A stretch of DNA of 64,000 bases from Clostridia bacterium (GCA_045545295.1 JAZQAO010000054.1:20826-84825), one strand, 5' to 3'. Counted from the first letter of the stretch, positions 2,432 to 48,719 are shown. The notes: generated by a model not told the origin, from the letters alone. Numbers and translations: made by a program.

Positions 2432-4519
2432 TTATTCTCCTAACATATTCATAACGGCCACACCTGCGCCAAGAACGATACCTACGCCGTGGTCGTCATT
2501 TTTGATTGTACCAAGGTTAAGGTAGTATTTTTCTTCTTTATTACAACCTGAGCCCTGACATACTCCGTAAACGTTACCGTCACTGTCAATGCATTTTTCG
2601 CAAAGGGCATTCCACGCCTCAACAACAGTGTCTTTGATATTTTCATCAAGCCAACCGAATTTTACGCCGCGTGCTAGAGCAGTAATAAACATTGCACTGC
2701 CACTTGTTTCAACGTAGCTGTCGTGATTGTTTATAACCTGATGCCATATTCCCTGACGCTTGTCACGGCAACTAAGAACACCACCTGCAAAATTACGGAA
2801 AATCTCAAGAACTCTTTCTCTGTCCTTATGGTCTTTTGGCATAAGCATAAGAAGCTCACTCATAGCAAGGAGCACCCAGCCATTACCTCTGCCCCACGGA
2901 ACACGGTTTGCAAACTCTTCCGGGGGGAAGTAAATATGTGAGTATATGTTCTGGTCGTGCATATACATTCTTTCATAGAAGCCGAAAATCTGCCTTGCAG
3001 CTTCGTCAAAATACTTTTCTTCACTGAATATTGCACCAAGTCGTGCAAGGAACGGAAGACACATATACATATCGTCTGTCCACATTGTCTTTCCGCGGTG
3101 AAATGTACCATCCGGGAATCTTGGGACATTAGTCATCATTTTGTCAGCCATCATTTCAATAAGACGCTTTGCGTTGTTATCCCCTGTGATAAGGTAGTAT
3201 TCGCAAAGAGTTATACCGAATGTACCGATAGAGTCAAGATTATTGAAGTTGGCAGATGCAGAAAGATATGAAGAATATCCCGACACTCTGTCATCGTGCT
3301 TTGCATAGTCGCGGTGCTTTGCAATTGTCTCACCAAAGGAGATATAGTAATCGTAAAATTCTTTTATATCAAGCTTTGCGGCAGTCTGTCGCATACCCTC
3401 TACGCCGACCATAATTGCATAGAACCACTGTCCCCAGAAGCTTGTTTCAACGTTCTGGCGAAGATATGTACCTTTGCGGTAGAAATTCCAGTAACAGGTT
3501 TTTCCGCAGGCTGAAGGCATAGGCTCTGCAAAGTCAAGCTTCATTTCGGGCACATAAGGGTAGCTCGGGGGATCTGTTTCTCTACCGAAAGGTCCTGACC
3601 ATATCCACTGAAGGTCGGGGCAGGTATCCCCTGTTACAAACGAAAGCTGTGTTTCACCGTCAACAGTTGCGGTAAATCCCCATTCTTCCCCTTTTGCACT
3701 CTTTATAAGAAGAGGTGTGAAATCTTTAAATTCAGCCTCATACTTTCCTTTCTCTTCCGATATGTAAAGGGTTTTTCCTTCACTTATTATCTTAATAGGT
3801 GACTTATGCTCAATAACAATCTTACCCTTACATTCTGTATATACGTAAGCGGCTTTTCCCTCATTTTCACAAAGAGAGGTAAAGTCAAATTCTTTTACAT
3901 TTGACTGCTCCGGTTTTACGGGGAAAACCCAGTCAATATTTTCAAAAGTAGGCTCAAATACCTCGTCTTTTTTATAAAGGCGTGAATGTCTTATTACTGC
4001 CTGTCCTTCAAAGCCGTCATTATCAATGTACTGTCTTGTACAGTAAACGTAACTACCTGCACCCATACGAAGTCCGGGAATAAGTATGCGAAGATACCCC
4101 TCAAATCCTTCTTCATCTGCAACAAGCTTTACTACAATACGGTTTTTACCTTTTTTGAAAAGGATATCCGCATCAACTGCAGGAATATTTCTGAAATTCC
4201 CCTCATGTGTAGGAATTTTTTCACCGTTAAAGTAAACCTCTGCATTTTTATTTTTAGCTACATTTATAATAAGCTCTCTGTCATAAGGACCGTCTGCATC
4301 AACACTGATAAAAGCGTAATCACCAACTTCGTAAGAGGGAAAAATTTCGCTAAAATCCGGTCCTGCCTTATGAATGATATCCATTTCCTTGTAATAAGGG
4401 AACGGACGGTAACAAACCTTACTCTTCCCTCTTATTTCAAACATATGGTCGTAGATTTTTCTTAAAATTTCCGCATTTGTAGATGCAACAGTTCTGATAG
4501 ATTTTTCGCAGTATTTCAT
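2432..4519 (-). CDS. GH105/GH88-family unsaturated rhamnogalacturonyl/glucuronyl hydrolase with ~330-aa N-terminal extra domain
   Basis: C-terminal (alpha/alpha)6-type region with WTDDMYM catalytic-Asp motif typical of YteR/UGL enzymes; GGAGG RBS before ATG 4519. Confidence 0.75.
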   Translation of the reverse strand: MKYCEKSIRTVASTNAEILRKIYDHMFEIRGKSKVCYRPFPYYKEMDIIHKAGPDFSEIFPSYEVGDYAFISVDADGPYDRELIINVAKNKNAEVYFNGEKIPTHEGNFRNIPAVDADILFKKGKNRIVVKLVADEEGFEGYLRILIPGLRMGAGSYVYCTRQYIDNDGFEGQAVIRHSRLYKKDEVFEPTFENIDWVFPVKPEQSNVKEFDFTSLCENEGKAAYVYTECKGKIVIEHKSPIKIISEGKTLYISEEKGKYEAEFKDFTPLLIKSAKGEEWGFTATVDGETQLSFVTGDTCPDLQWIWSGPFGRETDPPSYPYVPEMKLDFAEPMPSACGKTCYWNFYRKGTYLRQNVETSFWGQWFYAIMVGVEGMRQTAAKLDIKEFYDYYISFGETIAKHRDYAKHDDRVSGYSSYLSASANFNNLDSIGTFGITLCEYYLITGDNNAKRLIEMMADKMMTNVPRFPDGTFHRGKTMWTDDMYMCLPFLARLGAIFSEEKYFDEAARQIFGFYERMYMHDQNIYSHIYFPPEEFANRVPWGRGNGWVLLAMSELLMLMPKDHKDRERVLEIFRNFAGGVLSCRDKRQGIWHQVINNHDSYVETSGSAMFITALARGVKFGWLDENIKDTVVEAWNALCEKCIDSDGNVYGVCQGSGCNKEEKYYLNLGTIKNDDHGVGIVLGAGVAVMNMLGE

Positions 4520-4544
4520 AAACTATTCCTCCAAATTAATTACT

Positions 4545-4728
4545 AAAAAAGAAGCGTGCCGCTTCACCCATGTCGCGTCCCAACAACATTCAATTTTCCA
4601 ATTGTTGCTCGCGATTGAATTACGCAAATTCCTATACGGTAAAAAAGAAGCGTGCCGCTTCACCCACGTCGCGCACGTACAAAGTGCAAACACAGTTTCA
4701 CGCGTACTAATTTACGCAAATTCCTATA
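4545..4728 (+). repeat. Two tandem copies of a ~93-bp modular interspersed repeat (left module AAAAAAGAAGCGTGCCGCTTCACCCAYGTCGCR, variable core, right module TTACGCAAATTCCTATACGGT)
   Basis: Direct sequence comparison with 7 other loci in this window; core subtypes A and B. Confidence 0.85.
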
Positions 4729-4837: not shown

Positions 4838-7800
4838 TCAATTAATAAGTTCTGCCGTAACAGAAGCTATTTTCACATCTGTAAAACCGCTGATTGTAAA
4901 ATCAGTCTTTAAGCGTTCCATATTGTCAAGGCACGCCCCCGTAAGATTAAGGGTAACTGTTTTAAGCTCACCTGTTCCCGTACGGGTTATTTTTTCAGTA
5001 TTCTTAACAAGGCGGTTTCTTGTTTCACCTATTTCAAAGGTGTAATAGGTGAAGTTGAAATCAGTTGTTCCCTCGTCAAGATAAGTAATTGTAACCTTTA
5101 CATTTCCCTCGGTCTGATATGCGACTTCATTCTTGACATTTACACGCATAACGTTTCCTTTGGGAAGCTTATAAAGAGCCTGTCCATTATGAGTAATTAC
5201 TTCAACTTCACTGTCGCAGTCCGCATAGCTGAAGCTGTCGCAGCTACCTGAAAGGTCATACCAACCGCCGTCGGGAGCATTTGCAATAATGTCCGAAACA
5301 TCTGCCCAGCCGATTCTTATAATCTTACCTGTTTCGTCATAGTGACCAAACCACACCTTTGTACCGTCAAGATTAAATGCAGGATGGCAGTGTCCCGGAT
5401 TAATACCTGTCTGCTTTACTCTTGCAACAACATGGCTTACACCTGTGTAACAGTCAATAAGCACTATATCTGAATATTCACCGTTACTGTAACCCGTATC
5501 CGCTACTGCCCAGCGGTTACTTACGGGACTTGTTGCAACGTGGTTATATGCATAGTCACTGTTTATGTAATTACGTTCTGTCCCGTCATATTTAATGGAA
5601 ACAATACCTGGATAGCCGATTGCGGAGCTACCCGAAGATTTATGGAACACTATATGCTCACCGTCGTGTGTCCACATCTCATGGCAAGCAATTTCACCTG
5701 CAGATTTCGCAGAATAAAATCTTGGAACAAATACATTATAGTATTCGTCAGTATCTGTATTAAGCACCCACAATCTGTCATTTACGGAAGTACCTTCGTG
5801 ACAGAAAAGAAGAAGATTCGGCTTTACGGGGTTAATTGAAACATGGTTTGGATCATACCACTCTGTATCGAATACGTAGCTATGAGTAAGATCCCACTCC
5901 CCTGTTTCAATATCAAGTATGGGGAATCTTGAGCCTTCGGCAAGCTTCTTGTCCGACCACTCAACAGAAAGCTTTTCCTCCGTATCCATTACCTGAAGCA
6001 TACCTGCAGCATCTGCATATTCTTCCGGGATGACACCGACTACCTTTTTCTCATAAGTGTCAATATCCATTCTTATTATTTCACTGTCGCGGTTAATATA
6101 GAAAAGTCCGTTAAGTGGCGTTGTCACTATATTATGCTCTCTCTCACAATGGTCGATATACTTTACACTGCTTGTTGTTAAATTGTATTCATAAATCCTG
6201 AAATCGTCGTCACGGACAAAGAATTTATTTCCGTCCGCTGACCATCCCTGCATTGTAAAGTAGCTTCTTATCATATTTTTGCCGTTGAAATCTACCCAGT
6301 TATAGGATCTTCCCGAAACAGGGCAAGTCATTTCCCCTGATATTACTTCACGGTTAAGCTCATTCTTAAAGTAAAGCTGTTCTTGGTATGGATATGCAAT
6401 ATTCTTATCAAGTAAAAATACTTTAACAACCGAGTTTTCAGGATTTTCAGAAAGCTTGAAATCTTCAAATATAAGCTCTTCTGCGGTTGAGCTGTCTGTA
6501 TCAAGGTCAATGGACTTAAGACTGATATTTGTCAGTTCAGAATTCTGATATTCACATACTGCAACGCTGACTTTTTTAGCTTCCTCTGTCTGATTGTAAA
6601 GGCGGACATTCACATCAATAGTTCCGTCAAGTACCTCTTCAATAGCACCGACAGTCCTGCCGTCTGATGAGAATGTACTGTTTGAAACAACATCACCTGC
6701 CACTGTATATGCGGCAAAGTTATCAAAAGAAAGCTGACCTGACTGTGTTCTGAAGTTTGTGAAACGAATATCCTCAACGTTATAAAGTGCCTGGTCTTTT
6801 CTTGTAGTACATTCATAAAGGCCTATTGGAGTTTCGTTAATCTTCACACCATTAATAAAGTAGTCTGCCGTCTGGGTTGCTGTATTAATCTCAATTCTGA
6901 GAGTGAACCATTCATCAAGTATAGGTGCAGTTTCCATAAGATAAACGCTTCTTACTGTACCGGCATTGTCCTGACGTCTTGTGAACATAAATTCACGGTA
7001 ACCCTCGTAATAAAAACAGCAGTCAACTATCTGTGCCCTTTCTTTTGTGCCGTCAGGCAGAAGATAGTTTCCGTACATATGGAAGAAGTAATACTGTGGC
7101 GTATCAGAGTGATTAAATTTCAGGTCCGTTTCGAAAGCCACTTTGTACTGTGACGTTGTGGGGAATTTGTACTGAACAAATTTCTGTGACCCGCTTGTCC
7201 CTTCACGCCATGTATGCATAAAGTAGTTTTTGTTTTTATCAACTTCCAACGCTGTTTTGTAGGGGGCGTCACTGTACGTTGTTATTCCCATTTCAGATTC
7301 TGTAATCTGATGTATTCCCTTCCCTATGCTTTCGGGATAGTAAAATGAATCGGAATAATATACCGCTTTACCTTTAGAAAGAACTCTGTACTCAAGTTCT
7401 TTGTCTATAAGAATATTTTTTCCGTTTTGCATAATTGATGCGGTAATTTTAACAGTGGTATCTTCAAGGGGACGCTTTACAATACCCACTCCTTTTTCAC
7501 TGTTTACATCAATAACGGAAGGATTACTGCTTTCAAATGTGATTTCTACATCTGAAAAATCAATGCCGGAAAGCTTTGTGTAATCAAGGTCAAGATTTTT
7601 TGTTATGTGTTTTACAGACTCTGCCGTAAATACTTCCGGGGTAATAAGCTTTGCAATGTTTGATATTTTACTGTATTCATCACTACAAAGAACAGTGTAG
7701 CTTAACTCCTTTGTAACAGACGCACCGTTCTTTGAAATAGTTGCAGTAACAGTTACTGGCGTATCGTACTTCCCTCTTGTAACTGTGCCGTCACCGGAAA

Positions 7801-10135
7801 GAACATCTGTGTCACTTGAAGAGTAAGTCACTGTAATATCATTTTCACTGATGTAGTCAGCCCATTTGTGATTTTCAAAATCAAGGTCTGCGGTAACTGC
7901 ATCTTTATCCTCTGATGTAAAATCGGTTTCCTTAAGGTTGTTATAAAGATAGAAAATTTCGGGATTTTCGTTATACCATTTTGGGTTATCCGTAATACTT
8001 ACATCGTCTATAAAGAGGTTACCTTTTCCGTACTGACGGAATGTATTGAATTCAAAATCGTTGTAGCCTACAAATTCAGTTCTGTCAACAGATGGATTAA
8101 GAGCATCGTAAAAAGGAATAGGCTCACTGTTAACCTTTACATCATTTATAAATAGGTCAAGAGTCAATGAGTCTTCGTAGTATCTCCACTCAAAGTCTGC
8201 CCATTCTCCCACTTCCGGCAAATAATCCTTTGAAAAATATATTGTTTGACTTTTTTCACCGTTATGTACAGGCATATAAATGTTGTATGCACCGTTGGAT
8301 TCATATCGGAAGTTTGTTTCATTCAACCATACACGTTTGTTTTCACCGTTCACCTTAAATATGCCGTATGTTCTGAATACGTAAATCTGCGGTGCGTCAG
8401 TATGCTCAAACTTCATACGCATACGGTGAATAATATCACCCTTGGGCTTTTCACCTAGAATGTAGTAGGTACTGTTACCCTCTTCCATTCCCACTGGACG
8501 GTATGAATGAAGCAGATACTTCTCATCCTCTACATCAATATAGCTTTTAAATCTCTGTCCTGAGGTTGTATCCTCGGAAAGCTGTGTTGCATATCTTGAA
8601 GACCAGCCGTAAGTGCCTGCAATTGGAGGAGTGGCATTTGTTTCAGAACGTTTTATTCCCGGAACATCGTAAAGTATCATCCCTTTTCCTTCGGGATAAT
8701 AGAAGTTTTCAGACATATGTACCTTTGTGGTTTGTCTGAGCACAGTGAAATAAAGCTTATTAGTCCACGTCTTTCCGCCCCCGCTTACGGTTGCCGTTAT
8801 TTCTACGTTTGTATCACGGTAAAGGTCACGTGTAACGTAGCCTGTATTTTCACTTATAACAATAGCATCGTTATTACTTGTAAATGATACGGAATAACCA
8901 TCGGGAAGAAAATTTTCCGGATTAAGGTCAAGGTTTTCTGTTATAACGTCCCTTGGCTCATTTGTAAGCATTTCTTCCGTTACGTTAAAACGGTCTGTGT
9001 TATTTTCTTTTGTACTTGTTACAATTAAATCATCTATATACACTTTTCCGCCTGTAAATGTACGGAAAACGTTAAAGTCAATGTCATTTATATCTACAAA
9101 ATTTGTGCGGTTTGCATCCTCTTTATCTCTTTCGTAGAATGGTATACTTTCTTCTGTTACTTTTGTGCCGTTTATATACATATCCCATTCTTGGGCATCT
9201 GTATCAAAGAGCCATTCAAGCTCTGTTTCTTCCCCAACTTTGGACATATCTTCTTTTTTAATGTATGCAGACTTAACTTCACTACCGCTGTAATAGGACA
9301 TATAGGTTGAGGCAGCACCGTTTTGGTCATATTTATAGTTTATTTCAAAAATGCGTGCTCTTTCATAGCTACCGTCTACATAATAATTACCGAAAGCACG
9401 GAATACGTAAATCTGTGTGCCCGGCTCGTGGTCAAATGTGACATCAGCCTTGACGGACACTTTGCCCGATGGCTTGTCACCGAATACATAATGTAAAAAG
9501 TTATAGTCGCTGTCTACGGCAACATCACGGTATGCGTTAAGGAAATAATCACCGTTTACTTCGTCTGTAATTGCTTTAAATCTGTTTGCCGCTACGCTGT
9601 CACCCTCAAGCTCTGTTGCAAAGGCAAATGCCCATCCCTCCTCTGTTTCTCTTGTGGGAGATGGCATTGTTTTACTTACTGTAAGAGAGTCTTCCTCTGT
9701 AAAAAGGTTTCCTTTATTATTTGGATAATAGAAGTTTTCTGACAAATGAACTTTTGTAGTCTGTTTAAGAACTGTAAAATTAAGCTCCTTTTTTACACTT
9801 TCACTGCCGTGTGTTACAGTAGCTGTAAGTGTAACGGGAGTATCATGGTAGAGGTTGCGCACAACGTGCGCAACCTCACCGTCAATTGCTATGGCATTTG
9901 AGTTACTTTCAAAGCTTACACTGACACCTTCGGGAAGAATATCGCTTAAATCAAGGTCAAGATTTTTTGTAATAGCACCTGTAACCTCGTTTGTAAGCAT
10001 TTCTTCTGTAAGTGCATCGGCAAAAGAAGCCGCACTCACACTTGCCGCCATAGTTTTAAAACTAAAAGCACCAAACATAAGTGTAACTATGCATATAATT
10101 GCCGTTATTCTTTTAGAAAGCTTTGATTGTAACAT
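4838..10135 (-). CDS. Giant secreted surface protein: signal peptide, repeated Ig-like ~90-aa modules, PL22 oligogalacturonate-lyase-like beta-propeller domain, C-terminal shared module
   Basis: Signal peptide MLQSKLSKRITAIICIVTLMFGAFSF. Repeated LTNE..TENLDL..VSF.SNNDAI...TATV modules. FCHEGTSVNDRLWVLN, CHEMW, NPGHCHPAF motifs matching the Ogl/PL22 metal site. ATG at 10135 preferred over in-RBS GTG at 10144 (GAGGTGA-5nt-ATG). Confidence 0.85.
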   Translation of the reverse strand: MLQSKLSKRITAIICIVTLMFGAFSFKTMAASVSAASFADALTEEMLTNEVTGAITKNLDLDLSDILPEGVSVSFESNSNAIAIDGEVAHVVRNLYHDTPVTLTATVTHGSESVKKELNFTVLKQTTKVHLSENFYYPNNKGNLFTEEDSLTVSKTMPSPTRETEEGWAFAFATELEGDSVAANRFKAITDEVNGDYFLNAYRDVAVDSDYNFLHYVFGDKPSGKVSVKADVTFDHEPGTQIYVFRAFGNYYVDGSYERARIFEINYKYDQNGAASTYMSYYSGSEVKSAYIKKEDMSKVGEETELEWLFDTDAQEWDMYINGTKVTEESIPFYERDKEDANRTNFVDINDIDFNVFRTFTGGKVYIDDLIVTSTKENNTDRFNVTEEMLTNEPRDVITENLDLNPENFLPDGYSVSFTSNNDAIVISENTGYVTRDLYRDTNVEITATVSGGGKTWTNKLYFTVLRQTTKVHMSENFYYPEGKGMILYDVPGIKRSETNATPPIAGTYGWSSRYATQLSEDTTSGQRFKSYIDVEDEKYLLHSYRPVGMEEGNSTYYILGEKPKGDIIHRMRMKFEHTDAPQIYVFRTYGIFKVNGENKRVWLNETNFRYESNGAYNIYMPVHNGEKSQTIYFSKDYLPEVGEWADFEWRYYEDSLTLDLFINDVKVNSEPIPFYDALNPSVDRTEFVGYNDFEFNTFRQYGKGNLFIDDVSITDNPKWYNENPEIFYLYNNLKETDFTSEDKDAVTADLDFENHKWADYISENDITVTYSSSDTDVLSGDGTVTRGKYDTPVTVTATISKNGASVTKELSYTVLCSDEYSKISNIAKLITPEVFTAESVKHITKNLDLDYTKLSGIDFSDVEITFESSNPSVIDVNSEKGVGIVKRPLEDTTVKITASIMQNGKNILIDKELEYRVLSKGKAVYYSDSFYYPESIGKGIHQITESEMGITTYSDAPYKTALEVDKNKNYFMHTWREGTSGSQKFVQYKFPTTSQYKVAFETDLKFNHSDTPQYYFFHMYGNYLLPDGTKERAQIVDCCFYYEGYREFMFTRRQDNAGTVRSVYLMETAPILDEWFTLRIEINTATQTADYFINGVKINETPIGLYECTTRKDQALYNVEDIRFTNFRTQSGQLSFDNFAAYTVAGDVVSNSTFSSDGRTVGAIEEVLDGTIDVNVRLYNQTEEAKKVSVAVCEYQNSELTNISLKSIDLDTDSSTAEELIFEDFKLSENPENSVVKVFLLDKNIAYPYQEQLYFKNELNREVISGEMTCPVSGRSYNWVDFNGKNMIRSYFTMQGWSADGNKFFVRDDDFRIYEYNLTTSSVKYIDHCEREHNIVTTPLNGLFYINRDSEIIRMDIDTYEKKVVGVIPEEYADAAGMLQVMDTEEKLSVEWSDKKLAEGSRFPILDIETGEWDLTHSYVFDTEWYDPNHVSINPVKPNLLLFCHEGTSVNDRLWVLNTDTDEYYNVFVPRFYSAKSAGEIACHEMWTHDGEHIVFHKSSGSSAIGYPGIVSIKYDGTERNYINSDYAYNHVATSPVSNRWAVADTGYSNGEYSDIVLIDCYTGVSHVVARVKQTGINPGHCHPAFNLDGTKVWFGHYDETGKIIRIGWADVSDIIANAPDGGWYDLSGSCDSFSYADCDSEVEVITHNGQALYKLPKGNVMRVNVKNEVAYQTEGNVKVTITYLDEGTTDFNFTYYTFEIGETRNRLVKNTEKITRTGTGELKTVTLNLTGACLDNMERLKTDFTISGFTDVKIASVTAELIN

Positions 10136-10150
10136 CCGTGTCACCTCGAA

Positions 10151-12877
10151 TTATTTAAGAACTAATACACAGTCATTGATGTAGCCTGAGTATCTGTAAA
10201 TGTACATTGTTACACCATTATCAGTGAATGTGTAATCACCGTTTTCATCAAGTGATGCACTTACGGGAACATCATCGTATGTGCCCTGTCTTACCTCATG
10301 ATTTACATAGTCGATAATAACAGGCTTGGGACCGTTTGCGATTGCGTGTGATCTTACAGTTGCACCACGGTCTGTTGAAAGAACTACAGCAATGTTGTTT
10401 CTTGCATAAACATGGCCATAGAAATAGCCCTCACCTGTATCTTCGTTACCTGTTATTGACTGGAAAGGTGCTGAATCACTGGTTCTTACACGCAAGTTCA
10501 AATCAACGATATTGAAGTTTTCGTCAACCTTGATAGCTACGATATCACCAAACTTCAGTCCGCCGGGAACTACAGAATCAATAATTCCGGGGTGTTCTTC
10601 ACGGAATGTATATTCCTCGTCTTTATATCTGCCGGTTACCATATAGATATCTTCACCGTCTGCATTTACGCCCTTAACGCTCTTTATAACAGTCATAGCC
10701 TTGGGAAGGAAGCCTGTACCCTTCTGTGATACAACTTCAACTGCGCCTACTGTCCAGTACTGGTCTGCATCATACGCTCTTGCATTTGATCTTCTTGCAA
10801 GATCGTAAAGCTTTTCATGGGGAATTACCTTAATGTACTTTTCATCAAAATCAGCATCTGTTGGAACAAGGAAAATTGTTGTGTTCGCATCCATATTATA
10901 TTTACCGCTGAAAGAATTACGTTTTGCGTTATAATACTCGGAATAGCTTCCTGAGGGTGTCTTATATACAAGACAGAATCTTGTGGGGTCAAAACCTGTT
11001 GTCTTTGTACAGATTTCAGCATCTGTTGTGGTTTCGATTTCCTTAAGCTCACCGATTGCACTTAATTTAACCTTTACAACCTGTCTTCTGAAATCACCTG
11101 AAGTATTGCCGTCAACATAAAGGTCTGTTTCTGAAAGAATATCTGCACCGTTTTCTGTTGTAACACCGTTGATTTTAATTTTCTTTGCAGTTGCGATTGT
11201 AGCAATGTCGCCTGTGTTAAGGCACATTTTTACAAGGCACTTGCTTGCAAGCTTGGAGGTTGTGTCCTTACCTGCTTTAAGGAAATATGCGTACTGATAT
11301 TGGTCGTTATAATTTTCAATACCTGCAATTTTGCCCTGATAATCAAGACGGAGTGTAACCTCTGAACCAAGTACAGGCTTAACAAACCCATCTACACCGT
11401 TTTCATTATTTTCAAGGAATGTTGCACTGTATTCGTAAGGAGTGTCAACCTCTACCCCTTCAACCATGTGAGTAACAGTGATGATTTCCTTACCGTCTTC
11501 ATCTGTTTCAATAGCCTTTACTTTACAGTCAACCTTATCTTCTGTAACGATTATTTTAACTCTTGCATCATCCTTACTTGCAAAAACAGAAAGCACGCTG
11601 TTTGCTTTAAGAAGCGAAATAGCCTTTGTTTCACCGTTTGTTGTGAAGAATTCAAACTTTTTATAATCACCGTACTTGATTTCATTGCCGTTTTTGTCTG
11701 CAATAATCTGGTTTACCTGGTTATTTGTAAGGAGTAGGAAGTTTTCAAATTCTTCTGCAATAACTACATCATAGCTCTTGTCAAAATTCACATCAACAAA
11801 TGTAAGAGTACCTGATTTAATCTTAAGGTCATTTACCATAAATGCAGGATAGCTGCTTCCGTTATAGATAAAATCAGCATAGGGGCTTACCTCTACATTA
11901 ACTGTTTTGTTGCCGTTATTGTACACAACATTTTTCTTTGTAAACTTTGCTGAATCTGTCTGAAGGTCTTCTGCCTTTACAGTAAGAATAGTGTTTTTCT
12001 TCACGTCTTCTTCAATATAAACGAGCTTTTCCTCGTCTGTATTGTAATATGCGATTACGTTGTAACCAAGAAGTCCGTCAGTAACAACGCTGTCATTTTT
12101 GAGTTTAAGCTCACCAACTATAACATTATTTCCGGGAGCCTGTGACTCACCCTTAATATTTGTAAGACCGTCATCCTTTAACTGTGCCTCAATCTTTGTG
12201 ATGTTGTGATAAACCTCAAGAACTGTTTTTCCTTCTGATACAGAGAAAATCACATCTTCTGATTCAACACCGATTACCTGCATAATATCTGTTTCGCAGG
12301 CTTTTGTCATAAGCTCTACTACATCATAACGTGTTAACGCACTGTCTCTTCCTGCGCCTGTTGTAAGGTCAAGCTGAAGTGCTACAGAATAGAATCCGTC
12401 GGGATATCCGCCCTTTGAATTTGCAATACCGTCATAGCCGAGAGCAGTTACAACAGCCTTTGCAGCCTGATTGAATGTAATTTCTTCTTCAGGTCTGAAC
12501 TTATTATCGGAGCCAACCATAAGATTAGCCACGCCTACTGCATAGATAGAGTCAACATACTGTGTTTCTGCATTAACATCAGTATAAGTAAGCGGAATAT
12601 TTGCCGCTTTGTCAAGATTACAAAGTCCTGCAAGAGCAGTTGCAAACTCCGCTCTTGTAACTTTGTTTACAGGGTCTGTACCTGTTGATGTCCAGATTCC
12701 CACTGCTTTAAGAAAAGCAAGGTCTTTGTTGTATTTTTCAATCTGCGCTTCTGTATAAGTCACCGCAACTGCAGGAGCCTCTGTCTCCTCTGCCGCAAAT
12801 ACAGCAAATGAAGCAGACATTATGAAAATTACCATAACAAGTGAAATGCATTTTTTAAGCATATTCTTCATTTTCAT
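10151..12877 (-). CDS. Secreted cell-surface protein with N-terminal SLH domains
   Basis: Signal peptide; SLH-like segments (LAFLKAVGI...TRAEFATALAGL; YTDVNAETQYVDSIYAVGVANLMVGSDNKFRPEEEITFNQAAKAV); AGGAG RBS. Confidence 0.8.
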   Translation of the reverse strand: MKMKNMLKKCISLVMVIFIMSASFAVFAAEETEAPAVAVTYTEAQIEKYNKDLAFLKAVGIWTSTGTDPVNKVTRAEFATALAGLCNLDKAANIPLTYTDVNAETQYVDSIYAVGVANLMVGSDNKFRPEEEITFNQAAKAVVTALGYDGIANSKGGYPDGFYSVALQLDLTTGAGRDSALTRYDVVELMTKACETDIMQVIGVESEDVIFSVSEGKTVLEVYHNITKIEAQLKDDGLTNIKGESQAPGNNVIVGELKLKNDSVVTDGLLGYNVIAYYNTDEEKLVYIEEDVKKNTILTVKAEDLQTDSAKFTKKNVVYNNGNKTVNVEVSPYADFIYNGSSYPAFMVNDLKIKSGTLTFVDVNFDKSYDVVIAEEFENFLLLTNNQVNQIIADKNGNEIKYGDYKKFEFFTTNGETKAISLLKANSVLSVFASKDDARVKIIVTEDKVDCKVKAIETDEDGKEIITVTHMVEGVEVDTPYEYSATFLENNENGVDGFVKPVLGSEVTLRLDYQGKIAGIENYNDQYQYAYFLKAGKDTTSKLASKCLVKMCLNTGDIATIATAKKIKINGVTTENGADILSETDLYVDGNTSGDFRRQVVKVKLSAIGELKEIETTTDAEICTKTTGFDPTRFCLVYKTPSGSYSEYYNAKRNSFSGKYNMDANTTIFLVPTDADFDEKYIKVIPHEKLYDLARRSNARAYDADQYWTVGAVEVVSQKGTGFLPKAMTVIKSVKGVNADGEDIYMVTGRYKDEEYTFREEHPGIIDSVVPGGLKFGDIVAIKVDENFNIVDLNLRVRTSDSAPFQSITGNEDTGEGYFYGHVYARNNIAVVLSTDRGATVRSHAIANGPKPVIIDYVNHEVRQGTYDDVPVSASLDENGDYTFTDNGVTMYIYRYSGYINDCVLVLK

Positions 12878-12888
12878 GTTCTCCTTTC

Positions 12889-14598
12889 TTATCGGCTTAA
12901 AGCGCCGTAGATTAACTTAGCCGCCTGTGCACGTGTAAGCTTACCTGTAGGCTGGAACTGGGTTTCTGTCATACCGTTGATTACGCCTGCAGATGCAAGT
13001 GCATCAACGCTTTCCTTTGCATATTCTGCAATTTCGCCTGAATCGCTGAAGTTCTTTGCCTCACCGTTTTCAAGAGTGATACCCTTAAAATCAAGCACTC
13101 TCTTAAGCATTACTGCCGCATCCTGTCTTGTAATAGGCTGACCTACACCAAAAGTGAAGTTATCCTGACCTTTTACAATTCCTTTAACCTGTGCACTCGC
13201 AACATAAATATTTGCCCAGTGTCCTAAGAGGTCTGTGAAAATAGTAAGTGCTGTTTCATCATACATATCGAAAGCCATTACATACATCTTTACAAATGCT
13301 TCTCTTGTAACGTAGCTGTCAGGATCAAAGGTATTAAGTGCAATACCGTCGATTACACCAAGACTGTGAAGCTCGTTTACAGCCTCAAATGCCCAGTGGT
13401 CTACAGGAACGTCATTAAACATACTTGTTGAAGGAAGTGTAGGAAGAACTTCAAGGCTTTCATTTTTATTAAGAAGGTCTGAATCAACTATAACTTCCTT
13501 ATCGGGATTTTTCGCGGGGCCGCTGAATCCGCCACCGCCGCCACCGCCGCCACCGCCGGAGGGCTTTGAGTTTTCTTCATTATAGGAAACAACATCTTCA
13601 AACGCCTTTACAACTTCACCTGCAAGCACGAAATCCTGACCTACAAAGGCTTTGTTGATTTCACCTGCCCCGTATTTGTCGCAAGCATCTTCGTAATCCT
13701 GAAGAGTAATGCCGAAGTATTCGATGTACTTTTCAACAGTAGGACCGTTCTTTGTAGCATCAAGCTTATTAAGATTAGCTATTGCAATACTCTGGAAAAG
13801 GTCATTCTTTACATCAGTAATTGTTTCGGGAGCCTCGTTCTTTGCGTTAGCATAGAAAAGCTCATAAACTACATCTTTATTATCACTGTAGTCTCTGTCC
13901 TCTTTATCAAGTGTAAGAAGTGTGCTTTCATCCTCGCAAAGTGTCACGCACTCTTCATCGGTTGTTGTAGCGTTGATATCACGGATAAGCTGTACACCCG
14001 AAAGGATGTTTACTACAGTACCCATATCATTACATTCGTTATTGTAATCTGCTTCACGGATGTTAAGGAAAAGGTCACAGATTACATCTGTATTTTCTGC
14101 AAAATCTGTTTTGTCGATTGAAAGCATATCTGCCTTTTCAGAAAGAAGTGTTTCAATTTCTGCACGGTCTGCAGTTTCAATTGCCGGAAGTGTAACCTCT
14201 TCTATATAAGTCTGGCTTTCAAAGTAGATTTCTGTTGTATCCTTTGAAACAGCCGCTTTTGTACCGTTACCGGATGCAGCGATTACAAGGTAACCTGCCG
14301 GGTCATCTTCTGCAAGCTGAATTTCTGTTTCCACAAATCCGCTGCCGTCTGTTTTAACTTCAAGTGCACGTACGAAATCAGCAGGTGAAGATACCGTAGT
14401 TTCTTTTTCGTACATTACTATTGAAATTTTCTGCACATATTTTGCAGGTGTTGTAACCTGTATTGTAACTACAGATGTGTCGTAGTTTACAGATGCAGTT
14501 ACATCAAACTCTGTTTCTGCCGATACACTAAAGCACATAAGTGAAAGTGTCATAGTGCATACAACAATCATACAGAGGATTTTTTTAATATTCTTCAT
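12889..14598 (-). CDS. Secreted protein with poly-Gly linker and three C-terminal SLH domains (S-layer anchored)
   Basis: FNDVPVDHWAFEAVNELHSLGVIDGI...TREAFVKM and two further SLH copies. G10 linker. Start moved to ATG 14598 (AGAGGAG RBS) rather than the ORF-track Met at 14616, which lies inside that RBS. Confidence 0.8.
   Translation of the reverse strand: MKNIKKILCMIVVCTMTLSLMCFSVSAETEFDVTASVNYDTSVVTIQVTTPAKYVQKISIVMYEKETTVSSPADFVRALEVKTDGSGFVETEIQLAEDDPAGYLVIAASGNGTKAAVSKDTTEIYFESQTYIEEVTLPAIETADRAEIETLLSEKADMLSIDKTDFAENTDVICDLFLNIREADYNNECNDMGTVVNILSGVQLIRDINATTTDEECVTLCEDESTLLTLDKEDRDYSDNKDVVYELFYANAKNEAPETITDVKNDLFQSIAIANLNKLDATKNGPTVEKYIEYFGITLQDYEDACDKYGAGEINKAFVGQDFVLAGEVVKAFEDVVSYNEENSKPSGGGGGGGGGGFSGPAKNPDKEVIVDSDLLNKNESLEVLPTLPSTSMFNDVPVDHWAFEAVNELHSLGVIDGIALNTFDPDSYVTREAFVKMYVMAFDMYDETALTIFTDLLGHWANIYVASAQVKGIVKGQDNFTFGVGQPITRQDAAVMLKRVLDFKGITLENGEAKNFSDSGEIAEYAKESVDALASAGVINGMTETQFQPTGKLTRAQAAKLIYGALSR
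13527..13560 (-). repeat. (GGC/GGT)n simple repeat encoding a Gly10 linker
   Basis: gccaccgccgccaccgccgccaccgcc seen directly; translates to GGGGGGGGGG in the SLH protein. Confidence 0.8.
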
Positions 14599-14617
14599 AT
14601 CTGTAACTCCTCTCAAA

Positions 14618-17518
14618 TCACTTAACTTCCTTTACGAATACATCACGGATATACGCCTTTGACTGTACACCGCTTAACTTGAAGTCTGCACCAAGCTGGA
14701 ACATATTTTCAAGATTCATGTTTTTAAGATTAACCTTTACAGTCTTCCACTTACCGGTGTTATTACGCTGTATATATTCGACTCTGGGACGAAGCTTTCC
14801 GATACCTTCATAATAGTAGTCGGGGTGATTTTTCTCACGTTTAGCATAGGTGCTGATATTTTCCCATTCAAAGTAATCAATCTTTATGGGGAAATATGTA
14901 TTATCAAGATAAGTAATCTCGATTTCAACGTCGGTCTGTTCTTCTTCAAGGTAGTCAGGCTTAACCTTTACTTCCATAAAGTTGTTCTTGGGAATTTCAT
15001 AGTATGTACCCTTGTCATCCTTATGCTCGAGCATAAAGTGGTCTTCACCCTCGTAGCTGTATGTAGAACAAGCTTCGTTAAGGTCTATCTGACTGCCGGG
15101 AGTGGGATTTTCTGTAATGTCGCCTACGTAAGCCCAGCCGACTTCAACAGTCTTATAATCTTCACTCCAGAGACCGAAGAACGCAGTCTTTGCATCCCAG
15201 CTGAACTGCGGATGTGAATGTCCGGGGTTATTACCCTTTGTATGGTTTACAATAACTTTTGACCAGCCTGCCTCGGTATCCATAAGTACAAGCTTTGTAA
15301 AACCGTTTGCACTGTCGATACCAACGTCGGAAATAAGCCAGCGGTTGGAGTTAAGTGCAGTTGCACAGTGTGAGTAGTTGTGGTCACCGTTTACAAGGTA
15401 ACGGTCTTTTCCGTCCCAACGTGCAAAATAGATGCCTTCTTCTGCCGGCGTTTCTGTTTCTGCACCCCAGTTATAACGGATTTCATCGTGATGGGAGTCA
15501 CCTCTTACAGTAAGAAGATACTCACCGTCTGCAAGCCAGTATTCGTGAACACCTGTTTCACCTGTTCTTTCTGGTGAATACTTTTTCTGAGGGAAGCCTA
15601 CCCATCTTTCACCTGTGTCAATATCCATAACCCATGTTCTGTCATTTACATGTGCACCCTCGTGACAATAGAACACAAGATTTTTCTTTACGGGATTCTG
15701 ACAAAGATGTCCGGGATAAGTATAATCTGTTACAAAATCCTTTGAAAAATCAGGTATGAAAATATTTTTCCAGATGTTATTTTCGATATCGTACTGATGT
15801 ATTGAACCGCCCTGATCTCTCATTTCCCAATAACGGGCATCACGTACACCAATTGTAAGTGCCGTTTCATAAAAGTCAACCTGAAGCATTACACCTGTTG
15901 AAAGAGATATATCCTGATAAGCATCGGGAAGGTGTACTACAACAGTTTCTTCATAAGTGTCAAGGTTTATCTTGCAGATTCTTGAATATTTGTCAAGATA
16001 CCACAGATTGTTTTTCTTTGTAAGACAGAAGAAATGCTCAATACCGGGTCTACCACTGCACATATACTTAACCATATAGGTTTTCATATTATATTCGTAT
16101 ATGTTGGAATTCTTGTCACGGAAATAGAATCTGGTATCGTCTGTGGATGTCATAGGCATCGTATAGTAGTTTTTGATTGCATTTTCACCAAGAAGGTTGA
16201 TTGTGTAATAAGTTCTTCCTGTTTCGGGGTCATAGTGTTCTTCCGGGGGCATATAGAATTCACCCATCAGAAGCCAGTTGATAAGACTTGAATCGCCCGT
16301 TGCTCTGAAAGTATCAACTGTTACTCTGCCTGAATTGTAAAGGTCTGAAAGATAACACTTTTCTGTCTTTAAATTCTTCAAAGGAAGCATATTGTTTGCA
16401 AATGCAACAAGGTTATCCATAAGAACGGTCTTTGTAGGCTGGAATACCATGTTACCTGAATTGATAAGCTTAAGACCTGCTACAACAGAAAGAGGATTTG
16501 TCTTTAAATCTTCCCCTTCATAGCCCATAAAGTTTGCATACCACTCACAAAGCTCACTCTGCGGTAAAGGCTCCTTCGCACCGAGAGTCCCTGTGGTATT
16601 CTTTACGATACCGAGGCTTTCCGCCATACCGACATAAGGTTTGAAGTCTGCAGATACATCGACGAAGGAACAAGGAAGGTTCTGCTTCTCTGCCTCTTCC
16701 TTAAGACCTGCAAACTGAATCATATACTTAAGTGTTTCTTCTCTTGTAAGCTCTTTTCCGAGAATAGCATCTGCATTGTCTGCATTGTACTCATCGAAAA
16801 GGCCCATTACATTAAGAGAGTTTGCCGACTTCGAGTTAAAGAGGTCAAATGTTTCCTCTCCGGCATTACGGCTGAGGTTTGTAACCTCAATCTTTGAAAA
16901 CAAGTTATAACCGCCTGTTACAATACGCATATCGCCGCCGTATTCCATTGCCTGACGGAAAGATGCGTCAGAAATGTAGAATGTACATTCCCACCACTTT
17001 GCCTTTTCATATCGCTCTTCATCGGTACCACCCTTAGGGTCACCCATTTTAAGAACGGAGATACGACCATAGGTGTCGGTCGTACCGGGAATGGTGTAGT
17101 CAAAATGGATATAACCTGCACCACCGAAGTCGTAATAGTTGAATGTAATTTTGAAAGTTGTATCTTCAGGAGATGCGAAAGACGGGTCAAACTTCAGATA
17201 CATAATGTTCTGATAATAAACCTTTCTTCCGACGATACCCTTAAGCTCAACCTTTTCGTTATATGTAACGTCTTCCAGTACAGTCTTACCGAAACCATCT
17301 TCGAAAGTCATATGATTCTCTTCTGCGGTATCGGTGAATATGATATACGCATTATCCTTATCAACAGGCGTCGTCGCCTTGATTTCAGTCTGGGGCATAA
17401 TTACGGGATTCTGCCTGACTTCAATCTCTAATGCCAAAGCATTGATGCCGCCCATAAGAACAAGCATCGCAAACAGAGTGACTGCGCATACCAAACCTTT
17501 CTTAAATATTTTTTTCAT
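14618..17518 (-). CDS. Secreted surface protein with PL22 oligogalacturonate-lyase-like beta-propeller domain and C-terminal shared module
   Basis: Signal peptide; VFYCHEGAHVNDRTWVMD, VHEYW, NNPGHSHPQF motifs paralogous to the 1765-aa protein; GGGGGA RBS. Confidence 0.8.
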   Translation of the reverse strand: MKKIFKKGLVCAVTLFAMLVLMGGINALALEIEVRQNPVIMPQTEIKATTPVDKDNAYIIFTDTAEENHMTFEDGFGKTVLEDVTYNEKVELKGIVGRKVYYQNIMYLKFDPSFASPEDTTFKITFNYYDFGGAGYIHFDYTIPGTTDTYGRISVLKMGDPKGGTDEERYEKAKWWECTFYISDASFRQAMEYGGDMRIVTGGYNLFSKIEVTNLSRNAGEETFDLFNSKSANSLNVMGLFDEYNADNADAILGKELTREETLKYMIQFAGLKEEAEKQNLPCSFVDVSADFKPYVGMAESLGIVKNTTGTLGAKEPLPQSELCEWYANFMGYEGEDLKTNPLSVVAGLKLINSGNMVFQPTKTVLMDNLVAFANNMLPLKNLKTEKCYLSDLYNSGRVTVDTFRATGDSSLINWLLMGEFYMPPEEHYDPETGRTYYTINLLGENAIKNYYTMPMTSTDDTRFYFRDKNSNIYEYNMKTYMVKYMCSGRPGIEHFFCLTKKNNLWYLDKYSRICKINLDTYEETVVVHLPDAYQDISLSTGVMLQVDFYETALTIGVRDARYWEMRDQGGSIHQYDIENNIWKNIFIPDFSKDFVTDYTYPGHLCQNPVKKNLVFYCHEGAHVNDRTWVMDIDTGERWVGFPQKKYSPERTGETGVHEYWLADGEYLLTVRGDSHHDEIRYNWGAETETPAEEGIYFARWDGKDRYLVNGDHNYSHCATALNSNRWLISDVGIDSANGFTKLVLMDTEAGWSKVIVNHTKGNNPGHSHPQFSWDAKTAFFGLWSEDYKTVEVGWAYVGDITENPTPGSQIDLNEACSTYSYEGEDHFMLEHKDDKGTYYEIPKNNFMEVKVKPDYLEEEQTDVEIEITYLDNTYFPIKIDYFEWENISTYAKREKNHPDYYYEGIGKLRPRVEYIQRNNTGKWKTVKVNLKNMNLENMFQLGADFKLSGVQSKAYIRDVFVKEVK

Positions 17519-17532
17519 ATTTATCCCCCTTG

Positions 17533-19161
17533 TTATCTTGCGTCATATACGCGGATTGACTTAACACGGAAGTTTTCTCCTGTTGTTGTATTAATAGTCA
17601 AATCGTCTGTAGACACGGGAAGGTTATTACCAATAGCGAATTTTGCATTATCAATCTCTACAACTGCTTTTTTCCATTCGCCACTGTTTGTAAGTGTAAC
17701 AAGCTTGCAATCGTAACCTGACGCAGTCTTGTACATAATTGTAGCCTCACCCACACCCTCGTCAAGATACTCAATTTCAACATTTACTCTTCCGACACCG
17801 TTAAGGCGTGTGTCTGTTACGTCAAAATCAAGTGATTCGGAAGGATCAATTTCGATACAGTTAACACCGTCAACCTCTGTTGCTTCTGCCTTATCCATAT
17901 AGAAGATAACGTCACGGATTTCGGGAACGTCCTTTACACGAAGGCCTGCGGGGTCACCATCGTAGTCGCTTCTTTTTGCAACTGCAATGTCAGATACGTG
18001 AAGACCTGATGTTCCCTGCCAGAAACGGAAGTTACCCTGACCTGTACCATTATCCATGTAGTAGTGGAAATTAGCATTATTTACCCTAACGCTTGCAGTC
18101 TTCCACATCTGTGTTCCTGTTTTTTTCAAACTTACTGTAGTAGATTTAAGTGTGGTAGCTGTTGAAGCGTTATTTGTATATGTAAGGTTGATTTCCTGTG
18201 TATCATCGTCAAAATAAGTAAATTCCATAATTATGTCCTTATCATCAGCACTGATACGAGAAGGATCCACCTTAGCAGTAAATCTGCCTGACATCTTATC
18301 AGCACGGTTAGGTGCTGTAACTGCCGCACGGCACACTCTTCCGCCTGCTTCTGCTACTTCAGTCCAGCCGAGAGTTCCTCCATTTGCAGGAGTGGGACCT
18401 GTTTTATCATCACGTTTTACATTAACCCAAAGCCACAAACCATCTTCTTCAATTTCTGTTGTGTTTGTGGGGTCATCAGTTGTCATCTTGATATTCATAA
18501 CGTTTGCACTCTTTACATCTAATTCAGAAACTGCAGAAACAAGACCGCTTCCATCAACTGCTTCTACCTCGTAGTGATGCATAGAGTCCTTATCAAGATA
18601 CTTTTCCGTGAATGTTGTTTCATCAACAGCTTCTGCAATAAGTATACCGTCGCTGTAAACGTTGTAGTATGCTACATCGTCAAAATCGTCATACGCCTCA
18701 TCCCATGAAAGTTCAATTGCTGAAGGCATATTGTTGCTGTCATAAAGATTCTGGGGCTTTGCAGGCTCCATATTGTCAAGAGGTGTACATAATGTTACAC
18801 CGTCCCAAAGGAACACCTTGTATTCTTCTGTTGAAAGGCTGTTAACATTAACACCTGCTTTAAGAGTATCACTTACAAGCTCACCTGAAAGTGTTACTGA
18901 CTGTGAATCAGTTGCCTTAATCTTACCTGTTTCCTTATCGCAGAGCATAACGATAAGCATTACAGTCTGCGGTGAGGTACCGTTAAGATTTGCTGTTACC
19001 TGTGTGTACACAAGACCTGTCTGAACTTTGGGAATTTCACTCTCTCCTGCGTCCAGATACTTAAAATCTGTGAACTCCACTTTTGCGGCAGATGCCATTG
19101 CTATTGGTGCAAAGGAAAGCACCATTGCAAGAACTACCACTGTTGCCAATAGTTTTTTCAT
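17533..19161 (-). CDS. Secreted protein: Ig-like/FN3 domains plus two tandem copies of the shared C-terminal module
   Basis: Signal peptide MKKLLATVVVLAMVLSFAPIAMASA; FN3-like segment; two module copies (MEFTYFDDDTQEINLTY...WKTASVRV and VEIEYLDEGVGEATIMY...WKKAVVEI); GGAGGAG RBS. Confidence 0.75.
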   Translation of the reverse strand: MKKLLATVVVLAMVLSFAPIAMASAAKVEFTDFKYLDAGESEIPKVQTGLVYTQVTANLNGTSPQTVMLIVMLCDKETGKIKATDSQSVTLSGELVSDTLKAGVNVNSLSTEEYKVFLWDGVTLCTPLDNMEPAKPQNLYDSNNMPSAIELSWDEAYDDFDDVAYYNVYSDGILIAEAVDETTFTEKYLDKDSMHHYEVEAVDGSGLVSAVSELDVKSANVMNIKMTTDDPTNTTEIEEDGLWLWVNVKRDDKTGPTPANGGTLGWTEVAEAGGRVCRAAVTAPNRADKMSGRFTAKVDPSRISADDKDIIMEFTYFDDDTQEINLTYTNNASTATTLKSTTVSLKKTGTQMWKTASVRVNNANFHYYMDNGTGQGNFRFWQGTSGLHVSDIAVAKRSDYDGDPAGLRVKDVPEIRDVIFYMDKAEATEVDGVNCIEIDPSESLDFDVTDTRLNGVGRVNVEIEYLDEGVGEATIMYKTASGYDCKLVTLTNSGEWKKAVVEIDNAKFAIGNNLPVSTDDLTINTTTGENFRVKSIRVYDAR

Positions 19162-19497
19162 AAAAACTCCTCCTTAGAAAAAATGTATGATTAATAAAAT
19201 TATTTGCTTTTTCACAAGAACGGGTGTTTTTCTGAAATTCTGTATTTTACAGAAAAGCTCCCAAAAAAATCACCCAATCTTACCATTTTGTATTATATAT
19301 TATACAATAAAACAAAAAACTCCGCAATACACAATATTAATATTTTTGTGCTCAATATTAATATTTGGTTGATTTTTTAATTTTTTTGTTGTATTATATA
19401 AGCATAGTCTGGAAACGATGGAAATTATTATTAATAAAGGTGTTTAAAGACTTTTTCAATCGGTCTCAAACGCTTTGTTTTTACGGAGGCAGGATAT

Positions 19498-25742: not shown

Positions 25743-25743
25743 A

Positions 25744-26706: not shown

Positions 26707-26830
26707 AGCTTTTCCTCCATAAAAAGATTGAAAAATTTCTTTTATAATCATTTTACCACGATAAATTTTCCTTGTAAATTGCAAAAATAAGAAAAGCACA
26801 TTGCAAAAAGTCCACTGAATTCTATCTCTA

Positions 26831-26923
26831 AAAAAGAAGCGTGCCGCTTCACCCACGTCGCACCCTCACAGGAGTGCAAACAAAGTTTCCTGCGTCATAA
26901 TTTGACGCAAATTCCTATACGGT
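26831..26923 (+). repeat. Single copy of the modular interspersed repeat (core subtype C)
   Basis: aaaaaagaagcgtgccgcttcacccacgtcgca...ttgacgcaaattcctatacggt. Confidence 0.85.
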
Positions 26924-28924: not shown

Positions 28925-28941
28925 ATCATTTTTCCTCCTGA

Positions 28942-38476: not shown

Positions 38477-38511
38477 AAAAAAAGGTTGATGCGATGCATC
38501 AACCTTTTTTG
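38477..38511 (-). terminator. Intrinsic terminator overlapping the stop codon of the GRE activase gene
   Basis: aaaaaaaggttgatgc gat gcatcaacctttttt; 9-bp stem plus T6. Confidence 0.7.
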
Positions 38512-39314: not shown

Positions 39315-39369
39315 TGTTTACCTCCTGAATTGCACACTTCAACATTCCAAAATATCGCCCAAAACCGTT

Positions 39370-42242: not shown

Positions 42243-42377
42243 ATTAATACCGCCTTTCACCATAAGTATATCTGTATTATCGGAAATGTAAATACACAAA
42301 ACACTCCGTTTATACTTTTCGCTACAAAATTATTGACTTAATACTATGAATATGGCATTATAAGAGAAGGTGATAGT

Positions 42378-48575: not shown

Positions 48576-48719
48576 AAAATTCCCTCCATAATTGAATATA
48601 TCAGTTTCTATTCTTTTTTTCAAGCAAAAATTTAACATTTTTAGCGGATTTAAGCAAATTATTGATAGAAATTAAAAATTTTTTGATATATACTGTAATT
48701 TGAATGGAGGTATGTAATT

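Follow-up and report, generated by a model that had tools for sequence, protein, structure and literature searches.

A conserved five-gene cassette for predicted surface proteins with PL22-like beta-propellers in Clostridia

Introduction

To our knowledge, every characterised enzyme of polysaccharide lyase (PL) family 22 is small and cytoplasmic and works at the end of the pectin pathway. Abbott and colleagues reportedly described in 2010 that the known oligogalacturonate lyases (Ogl) are cytoplasmic proteins of about 390 amino acids (aa), active on short oligomers. Two of them have solved structures, 3PE7, the Mn complex of YeOGL, and 3C5M, Vibrio VPA0088; the Ogl of Dickeya is a further PL22 member. 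Here we describe five adjacent genes at 4838-19161 of a 64,000-nucleotide (nt) stretch of DNA from Clostridia bacterium (GCA_045545295.1, JAZQAO010000054.1:20826-84825), which is called the window and numbered from its first nucleotide. The genes are named g5 to g1 in order of transcription, and g4 and g1 encode large proteins with propellers that resemble Ogl. An earlier reading of this DNA, referred to below as the original prediction, had proposed that the five genes form an operon for a cell-surface pectin- or oligouronide-processing complex with an unusual exported lyase type.

The g4 and g1 propellers share with the PL22 enzymes the seven-bladed fold, homology at the profile level, equivalents of Arg217, His242, His287, His353 and His355, and the GH.., CHEG and HE.W motifs. 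They differ in their low identity, in Pfam scores around the cut-off and in the replacement of Gln350 by Asn. In addition, a beta-sandwich module always follows the propeller, and the proteins are predicted to be exported, 900-1800 aa long, and equipped with S-layer homology (SLH), aBig_2 and other modules. As far as we know, no other PL22 enzyme combines a location outside the cell with a C-terminal beta-sandwich that is always present, with anchoring by SLH and with a place in a fixed five-gene cassette that occurs in several types per genome, nor has any of these features been seen in one. Our literature searches found no description of an extracellular or SLH-linked PL22.

SLH-anchored enzymes of Firmicutes are the second point of comparison. 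The SLH glycosidases of Thermoanaerobacterium and Caldicellulosiruptor and the SLH anchoring scaffoldins of Clostridium thermocellum are examples, and Monoglobus pectinilyticus is reported to possess SLH-bearing pectinases, although a literature search on Monoglobus and SLH gave nothing relevant. As in such enzymes, a signal peptide and an SLH triplet would attach a catalytic module to the cell wall of a polysaccharide-degrading monoderm bacterium. In contrast to them, the module here is PL22-like, the genes form a fixed set of five, two dedicated SLH proteins are non-catalytic, and there is no cohesin-dockerin pair. The locus also resembles in part Gram-positive polysaccharide utilisation loci, since an AraC-type response regulator is adjacent, a cytoplasmic GH105 is found downstream, and an ABC binding protein and permeases are present in or beside related cassettes (loci L017 and L014). 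It differs from them in that no transporter lies by this operon, and the conserved core consists of surface proteins rather than a transporter plus enzymes.

We propose that g5 to g1 probably represent a conserved surface cassette of uncultured gut Clostridia (assigned by NCBI to Oscillospiraceae or Clostridia) with PL22-like lyases for an acidic polysaccharide.

Results and discussion

Homology and fold of the propellers

First, the propellers of g4 (aa 431-811; 15086-16228, minus strand) and g1 (aa 1275-1625; 5270-6322, minus strand) were compared with each other and with proteins of solved structure. The two regions are paralogous, g1 aa 1275-1753 and g4 aa 431-950 being 34% identical (E 4e-81). 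When PDB sequences were searched with phmmer, the sole matches of the propellers were the two solved oligogalacturonate lyases, and the best pairs were g1 with 3c5m (E 6.9e-9) and g4 with 3pe7 (E 8.8e-6). A profile of 19 family members matched both lyases at E 1e-18 over chain residues 13-369. A search of NCBIfam gave nothing useful.

An AlphaFold2 model of g4 aa 425-966 was obtained with pLDDT 83.9 and pTM 0.85. The model contained about 26 strands in its propeller part and, after it, a beta-sandwich of 12 strands. Foldseek placed 3c5m (E 4e-19) and 3pe7 (E 1e-18) on top, with a TM score of 0.76, and the predicted seven-bladed propeller could be superposed on both structures. An unrelated propeller of the TolB/DPP-IV type, which the original prediction had named as the alternative to look for, was rejected, because TolB appeared only at E 3e-9, ten orders of magnitude worse than Ogl. 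On the profile and the predicted fold, both propellers are remote but real PL22 homologues, as the original prediction had supposed. The motifs quoted there were also found, namely FCHEG at g1 1447 (YCHEG in g4), CHEMW at g1 1487, VHEYW at g4 657, and NPGHCHPAF and NPGHSHPQF.

Conservation of the active site

The catalytic positions of YeOGL were mapped onto g4 by profile alignment to 3pe7. In this enzyme His242 is reportedly the base and Arg217 is catalytic, and three His and a Gln are said to form the Mn site, again according to Abbott and colleagues in 2010. We assumed these roles for R217, H242, H287, Q350, H353 and H355, and all six positions carry the assumed residue type in 3pe7. The alignment paired R217 with R627 of g4 and R1457 of g1, H242 with H658 and H1488, H287 with H717 and H1535, H353 with H767 and H1585, and H355 with H769 and H1587. 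At the position of Q350, both propellers have Asn (N764 in g4, N1582 in g1). Two further His were noted as key residues in each propeller (H604 and H619 in g4, H1434 and H1449 in g1).

Seven of the g4 residues, H604, H619, R627, H658, H717, H767 and H769, were invariant across 17-19 close family members. Among 118 wider relatives, R627 was kept in 113, H658 in 117, and H717 and H769 in 116 each, while the position of H767 was His in 83 and Gln in 30. The position of Gln350 was His, Asn, Asp or Gln in the wider relatives; Asn, Asp and His are also able to bind metal. By this conservation, the lyase-specific residues are under selection, and only the fourth ligand differs. Judged by the alignments, the catalytic Arg and His and three metal-site His are retained in both propellers. 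The His3-Gln Mn site expected from the original prediction was thus found in part, with its three His present and its Gln replaced by Asn, and the loss of the Mn-binding constellation, which that prediction had regarded as decisive against it, was not observed.

Relatives of g4 and duplication of the cassette

A word-indexed search detected 17 relatives of g4, none of them named. An exhaustive search of 1.84 billion representatives detected 148 relatives at E<=1e-3, most of which were 900-1700 aa long with signal-peptide-like starts. No protein name was recovered for any relative that was retrieved or looked up, apart from one record that held a stray backslash only. Forty-one relatives were scanned for domains, and PF14583 was found in 20 (E<1e-3), aBig_2 in ten, GDSL esterase in two, and dockerin and SLH in one each. 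Proteins of 350-400 aa without signal peptides connect the g4/g1 clade to canonical Ogl-type proteins (84-118 bits with PF14583).

A scan of species-representative genomes identified 16 related loci in seven metagenome-assembled genomes (MAGs) labelled Clostridia, Oscillospiraceae or Clostridiales. Over the DNA covered in each locus, the order was g5-like, g4-like, g3-like, g2-like and a fifth gene, and it was complete in 12 of the 16. The DNA of L011 and of L013 stops within the fifth gene, that of L015 sets in within the g4-like gene, and L016 showed no fifth open reading frame (ORF). The gene products were of similar size throughout (g5-like 507-554, g4-like 960-974, g3-like 559-611 and g2-like 903-1028 aa), with an identity between cassette types of 25-37%. 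The fifth gene occurred in two forms. One encodes a g1-type propeller protein of 1412-1776 aa; the product of the other is secreted, is 817-849 aa long, contains aBig_2 and weakly matches the C-terminal portion of a 260-aa module of g1. The g4-like proteins of 15 loci (L015 was left out) fell into five groups, each common to several MAGs, and they were 60-95% identical within a group across MAGs and 30-51% identical between groups. Four of the MAGs contain several loci each (2, 3, 3 and 5).

From these comparisons, the cassette is an ancient unit that was duplicated and kept whole and that exists in at least five types. Nothing argues more strongly for a joint action of the five proteins than this duplication and complete retention. 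The packed one-strand operon of the original prediction was therefore borne out by synteny across the 16 loci as well as by the gene layout given below, and its nature as a repeated, anciently duplicated unit goes beyond that prediction. In one metagenomic locus (L017, 2917-20674, JGI 3300004151), genes for an ABC binding protein and two permeases lie between the g4-like and g3-like genes, preceded by genes for a 1098-aa PL22-like protein and a 1211-aa protein with FN3 and a GDSL esterase. This arrangement points to a link of the cassette there with both deacylation and uptake.

Predicted export, wall anchoring and domain architecture

All five N-termini carry 2-4 Lys/Arg residues, a 12-residue stretch with a hydropathy of 2.7-3.1 and Ala-rich, cleavage-like sites. 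The signal peptides that the original prediction had placed on the large propeller proteins were thus predicted for every product of the operon.

The g4 protein begins with its signal peptide and an N-terminal beta-sandwich (aa 39-218), followed by a degenerate SLH triplet (aa 222-419; 16262-16855, minus strand), the propeller and a C-terminal beta-sandwich module (aa 812-965; 14624-15085, minus strand) modelled with high pLDDT. Within aa 222-419 the family profile matched the SLH structure of SpaA (6cwm, E 5.5e-4), and a hidden Markov model (HMM) of the same region matched the SLH repeats of g3 (E 2e-8) as well as those of g2. The SLH signal of g4 is weaker and degenerate relative to those of g3 and g2. 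The C-terminal module, of about 140 aa, is common to g4, g1 and g5. Two copies are present in g5, one copy ends each of g4 and g1 (in g1 aa 1630-1766; 4847-5257, minus strand; HMM E 6e-37), and it weakly resembles the N-terminus of g4. A profile search of the PDB found no relative of it.

The g3 protein consists of a signal peptide, an Ig-like and helical region, a poly-Gly linker and three C-terminal SLH repeats at about aa 405-570, which the Pfam SLH model matched in 3 stretches (E 1.7e-30). The linker is a run of about ten glycines (aa ~350-360; ~13540-13570) between the N-terminal part and the SLH triplet. In g2 the SLH triplet (about aa 41-195; E 1e-10 in the profile comparison with SpaA-SLH) follows the signal peptide directly and is itself followed by about 700 aa rich in beta structure. 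An AlphaFold2 model of g2 (pLDDT 82.5) matched only SLH structures in Foldseek (SpaA and Sap, TM 0.7-0.8), and for the 700-aa body no known relative was found with this model. The two SLH-domain proteins of the original prediction are therefore g3 and g2.

The g5 protein has a signal peptide, an N-terminal Ig-like region, an FN3 domain at about aa 134-221 (E 4e-16), by which it is the FN3-containing protein expected in the operon, and beta-sandwich modules at aa 295-395 and 421-538. The g1 protein has a signal peptide, four aBig_2 domains, which agree with the Ig-like repeats that had been noticed upstream of the propeller, three modules of 260 aa, the PL22-like propeller and the C-terminal module. 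The three copies of the 260-aa module, all on the minus strand, were detected by jackhmmer at aa 126-395 (8960-9769), aa 469-727 (7964-8740) and aa 925-1150 (6695-7372), and a profile search of the PDB found no relative of the module. Neither g5 nor g1 has an SLH domain. The SLH triplets predict that g2, g3 and g4 are wall-anchored; anchoring of g4 itself, which had not been recognised before, would bring the number of anchored proteins to three of the five.

Gene layout, transcription unit and candidate operator

All five genes are on the minus strand. The first gene, g5 (17533-19161; 542 aa), is preceded by an AAGGAGG ribosome-binding site and a 336-nt intergenic region, and it is followed by g4 (14618-17518; 966 aa), g3 (12889-14616; 575 aa from a TTG, with a probable ATG start at 14598), g2 (10151-12877; 908 aa) and the last gene, g1 (4838-10144; 1768 aa from a GTG and 1765 aa from the first ATG). 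The sizes of 1765 and 966 aa given earlier for the propeller proteins were thus reproduced. The gaps g5/g4, g4/g3, g3/g2 and g2/g1 are 14, 1, 11 and 6 nt, so that the reported range of 5-15 nt was correct for three gaps and incorrect for g4/g3, which measures 1 nt with the TTG start of g3 and 19 nt with its first ATG.

Downstream of g1, two identical terminator-like hairpins, each GAAGCGGCACGCTTC and then a T run (T6), are present at 4551-4661 on the minus strand. They belong to a tandem duplication with a 96-nt period (4544-4689), in which the same GAAGCGGCACGCTTC hairpin closes each copy, and an Rfam search of this duplicated region gave no credible match. No other terminators were seen in the five-gene unit. 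Because of the short gaps, the one upstream promoter region and the position of the terminators, g1-g5 are a single transcription unit by anatomy; the common strand and an order kept among distant relatives agree with this.

A gene for a response regulator with an AraC-type helix-turn-helix (Pfam; 19498-20703, plus strand) is divergent from g5 and is the candidate regulator of the operon; a response regulator also adjoins the cassette in L001-L004 and L019. The divergent promoter region between the two genes contains the palindrome AATATTAATATT twice, 21 nt apart (19333-19365). The same pair with equal spacing was found in the orthologous loci L001 (8156-8188), L002 (3881-3913), L003 (1664-1696) and L004 (8162-8194), where it was kept although the regulator had diverged down to 56% identity. 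The pair is likely to be the operator.

Neighbouring genes and clues to the substrate

The GH105-type hydrolase that had been reported to flank the operon was confirmed at 2432-4519 on the minus strand (695 aa, no signal peptide; PF07470 E 5e-65). This putative unsaturated uronyl hydrolase has the YteR-type GH105 enzymes as its closest solved relatives, and its PDB relatives include the ulvan-specific 4ce7. Next to it, two tandem paralogs of 318 and 319 aa are encoded at 513-1469 and 1470-2429 on the minus strand, and together with the GH105 gene they form a separate unit downstream of the g1 terminators. They are cytoplasmic members of a weakly GH20-like family of about 320 aa, to which two further paralogs at 24792-25820 and 25744-26856 also belong. 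The similarity to GH20 is weak (8bal E 3e-4; PF00728 E 7e-3), and signal peptides are lacking. The tandem paralogs of the original prediction were accordingly present, with only the weak GH20-like signal in favour of a TIM barrel. In metagenomes, the family gave 187 matches at E<=0.001, mostly unnamed or 'hypothetical', with one 'Tat pathway signal protein'. Since members recur beside paralogous cassettes and GH105 (L008, 7454-8419 and from 22220 onward; L009, 13575-14576), the family may be a glycosidase of the cassette pathway. A DUF4838 protein of 667 aa (22758-24761) adjoins the second pair of paralogs, and this arrangement was kept in L001 and L004. Around paralogous cassettes, the recurring families were ABC permeases and binding proteins (the ABC components beside L014 among them), Amidohydro_2, GH88/105, GFO/IDH/MocA oxidoreductases and AraC regulators.

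The uxaB and uxaA genes, which the original prediction had counted among the flanking genes, do not flank the operon. An AraC regulator and the divergent uxaB (mannitol-dehydrogenase family) and uxaA (altronate dehydratase) occupy 47766-51342, with uxaB/uxaA at 48720-51342, about 30 kb from the operon, and sporulation, TIR/TPR, glycosyltransferase, glycyl-radical and metal-ATPase genes lie between. They were therefore dismissed as part of the locus. Their presence shows that the genome has a galacturonate/altronate route.

Proposed function and alternative readings

According to our proposal, all five products would be exported, and g4, g3 and g2 would be held on the wall by their SLH triplets, while g5 and g1, which lack SLH and have a module in common with g4, would associate with the anchored proteins or be released. 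Outside the cell, the g4 and g1 propellers would cleave an acidic polysaccharide at a uronic-acid residue by metal-dependent beta-elimination, and the substrate would, as a guess, be held by the aBig_2 domains and the 260-aa modules of g1. The unsaturated oligosaccharides would then be taken up into the cytoplasm, where the neighbouring GH105 hydrolase and the GH20-like proteins would trim them, and expression would be controlled by the divergent response regulator, acting at the AATATTAATATT pair. For the two propellers, lyase activity is the most likely function in view of the conserved catalytic residues and the adjacent GH105; because this enzyme needs unsaturated products, it supports an extracellular beta-elimination. 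Import and cytoplasmic trimming are suggested by the gene context, and control by the response regulator is suggested by the conservation of the palindrome pair.

Several observations weigh against this proposal. The search with PF14583 that the original prediction had recommended gave a divided result, as the isolated g1 propeller scored 30.9 bits, just above the curated Pfam cut-off of 30 bits, and g4 scored 25.4 bits, below it. The g4 model was only 17-18% identical to 3c5m and 3pe7 in Foldseek, Gln350 is replaced in both propellers, and the convergence of H717, N764, H767 and H769 on one metal site is a prediction from the alignment. The signal peptides were assigned by a heuristic based on hydropathy and not by SignalP, and a physical complex is inferred from synteny and shared modules only. 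In addition, there is no transporter next to the operon within the window, and the classical pectinase families GH28, PL1, PL9 and CE8 were absent both from the families listed for the window ORFs and from the 25 most frequent of the 66 families beside paralogous cassettes. Amidohydro_2, GFO/IDH/MocA and the GH20-like proteins, which recur as neighbours, are not part of the classical pectin route.

With no GH28, PL1, PL9 or CE8 among the listed families, the pectic reading draws on the PL22 likeness and on GH105 and on nothing further. A pectic substrate is the leading guess, which we hold tentatively and at somewhat less than an even chance, as the neighbours are unlike those of a classical pectin locus. 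The surface pectin/oligouronide complex of the original prediction is accordingly upheld in part, in its PL22-like propellers with predicted export and in its SLH proteins, and it lacks a classical pectinase listed nearby. It is also possible, if not what we would expect, that the cassette is a surface lyase system for something other than homogalacturonan and its oligomers, with five types of different specificities. Candidates would be rhamnogalacturonan, the side chains of arabinogalactan-protein or gum arabic, glucuronan, a microbial exopolysaccharide or a host glycosaminoglycan. The lack of classical pectinases among the listed families, the company of GH105, GH20-like, DUF4838, Amidohydro_2 and GFO/IDH/MocA proteins, the ulvan-specific relative of GH105, and the parallel maintenance of five types that are about 30-51% identical all argue for such a substrate. 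On the other hand, the sole characterised relatives of the propellers act on oligogalacturonides, the best matches of GH105 are YteR-type enzymes, and uxaB/uxaA are in the genome, though 30 kb off.

It is unlikely that the propellers have kept the PL22 fold and metal site for a function other than that of a lyase, be it that of a hydrolase, lactonase or esterase, or glycan binding in an S-layer-associated assembly. The very low identity to real lyases and the changed Gln ligand would fit such a function, as would the first His of HxH, which is Gln in 30 of the 118 relatives, and the fact that much of the cassette (g2, g3 and g5) is non-catalytic surface protein. However, the Bronsted-base His (117/118) and the charge-neutralising Arg (113/118) are specific to the lyase mechanism, and a GH105, an enzyme that requires unsaturated products, is a direct neighbour of this operon and of several paralogous cassettes.

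That five surface-protein genes are neighbours without a joint function, their PL22-like domains being ordinary Ogl enzymes fused by chance, is highly improbable. Over the DNA covered, the 16 loci (12 of them complete) agree in gene order and sizes, although the types are only 25-37% identical. The gaps of 1-14 nt, the one promoter region and the terminators after g1 only also argue against chance adjacency, and the signal peptides on g4 and g1 exclude a cytoplasmic Ogl role.

If the proposal of a surface cassette with PL22-like lyases is true, this fold would have a wider role, since exported enzymes tethered to the wall would use it for the initial step in the breakdown of acidic glycans, outside the cell. 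Gut Firmicutes would moreover have an enzyme class that has gone unannotated, with Pfam scores at or below the threshold and relatives that are unnamed. The repeated cassette offers a defined unit for asking how monoderm gut bacteria organise the capture of glycans at their surface, and those of its modules for which no relative was found, namely the body of g2, the 260-aa module and the beta-sandwich common to g1, g4 and g5, may be new domains for carbohydrate binding or assembly. In a bolder version, which we put forward with considerable reserve, the five genes would encode a previously undescribed Gram-positive surface machine for glycan capture and depolymerisation, a functional counterpart of the Sus-like systems of Bacteroidota, composed of two dedicated SLH scaffolds, an SLH-anchored lyase and two accessory proteins and duplicated to at least five specificities per lineage. 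Its propellers would then be extracellular lyases of a new PL subfamily or family, possibly non-pectic.

Other genes in the window

Two groups of genes elsewhere in the window were also recorded. A TIR-domain protein with TPR repeats (819 aa) is encoded next to a Sel1-repeat protein (374 aa) at 27800-31401; the two are unrelated to the operon and may be a defence or signalling pair. At 38499-42299 there are genes for a PFL-like glycyl-radical enzyme of 725 aa, its radical-SAM activase and a short-chain dehydrogenase, which are followed by an AraC regulator at 42378-43160.

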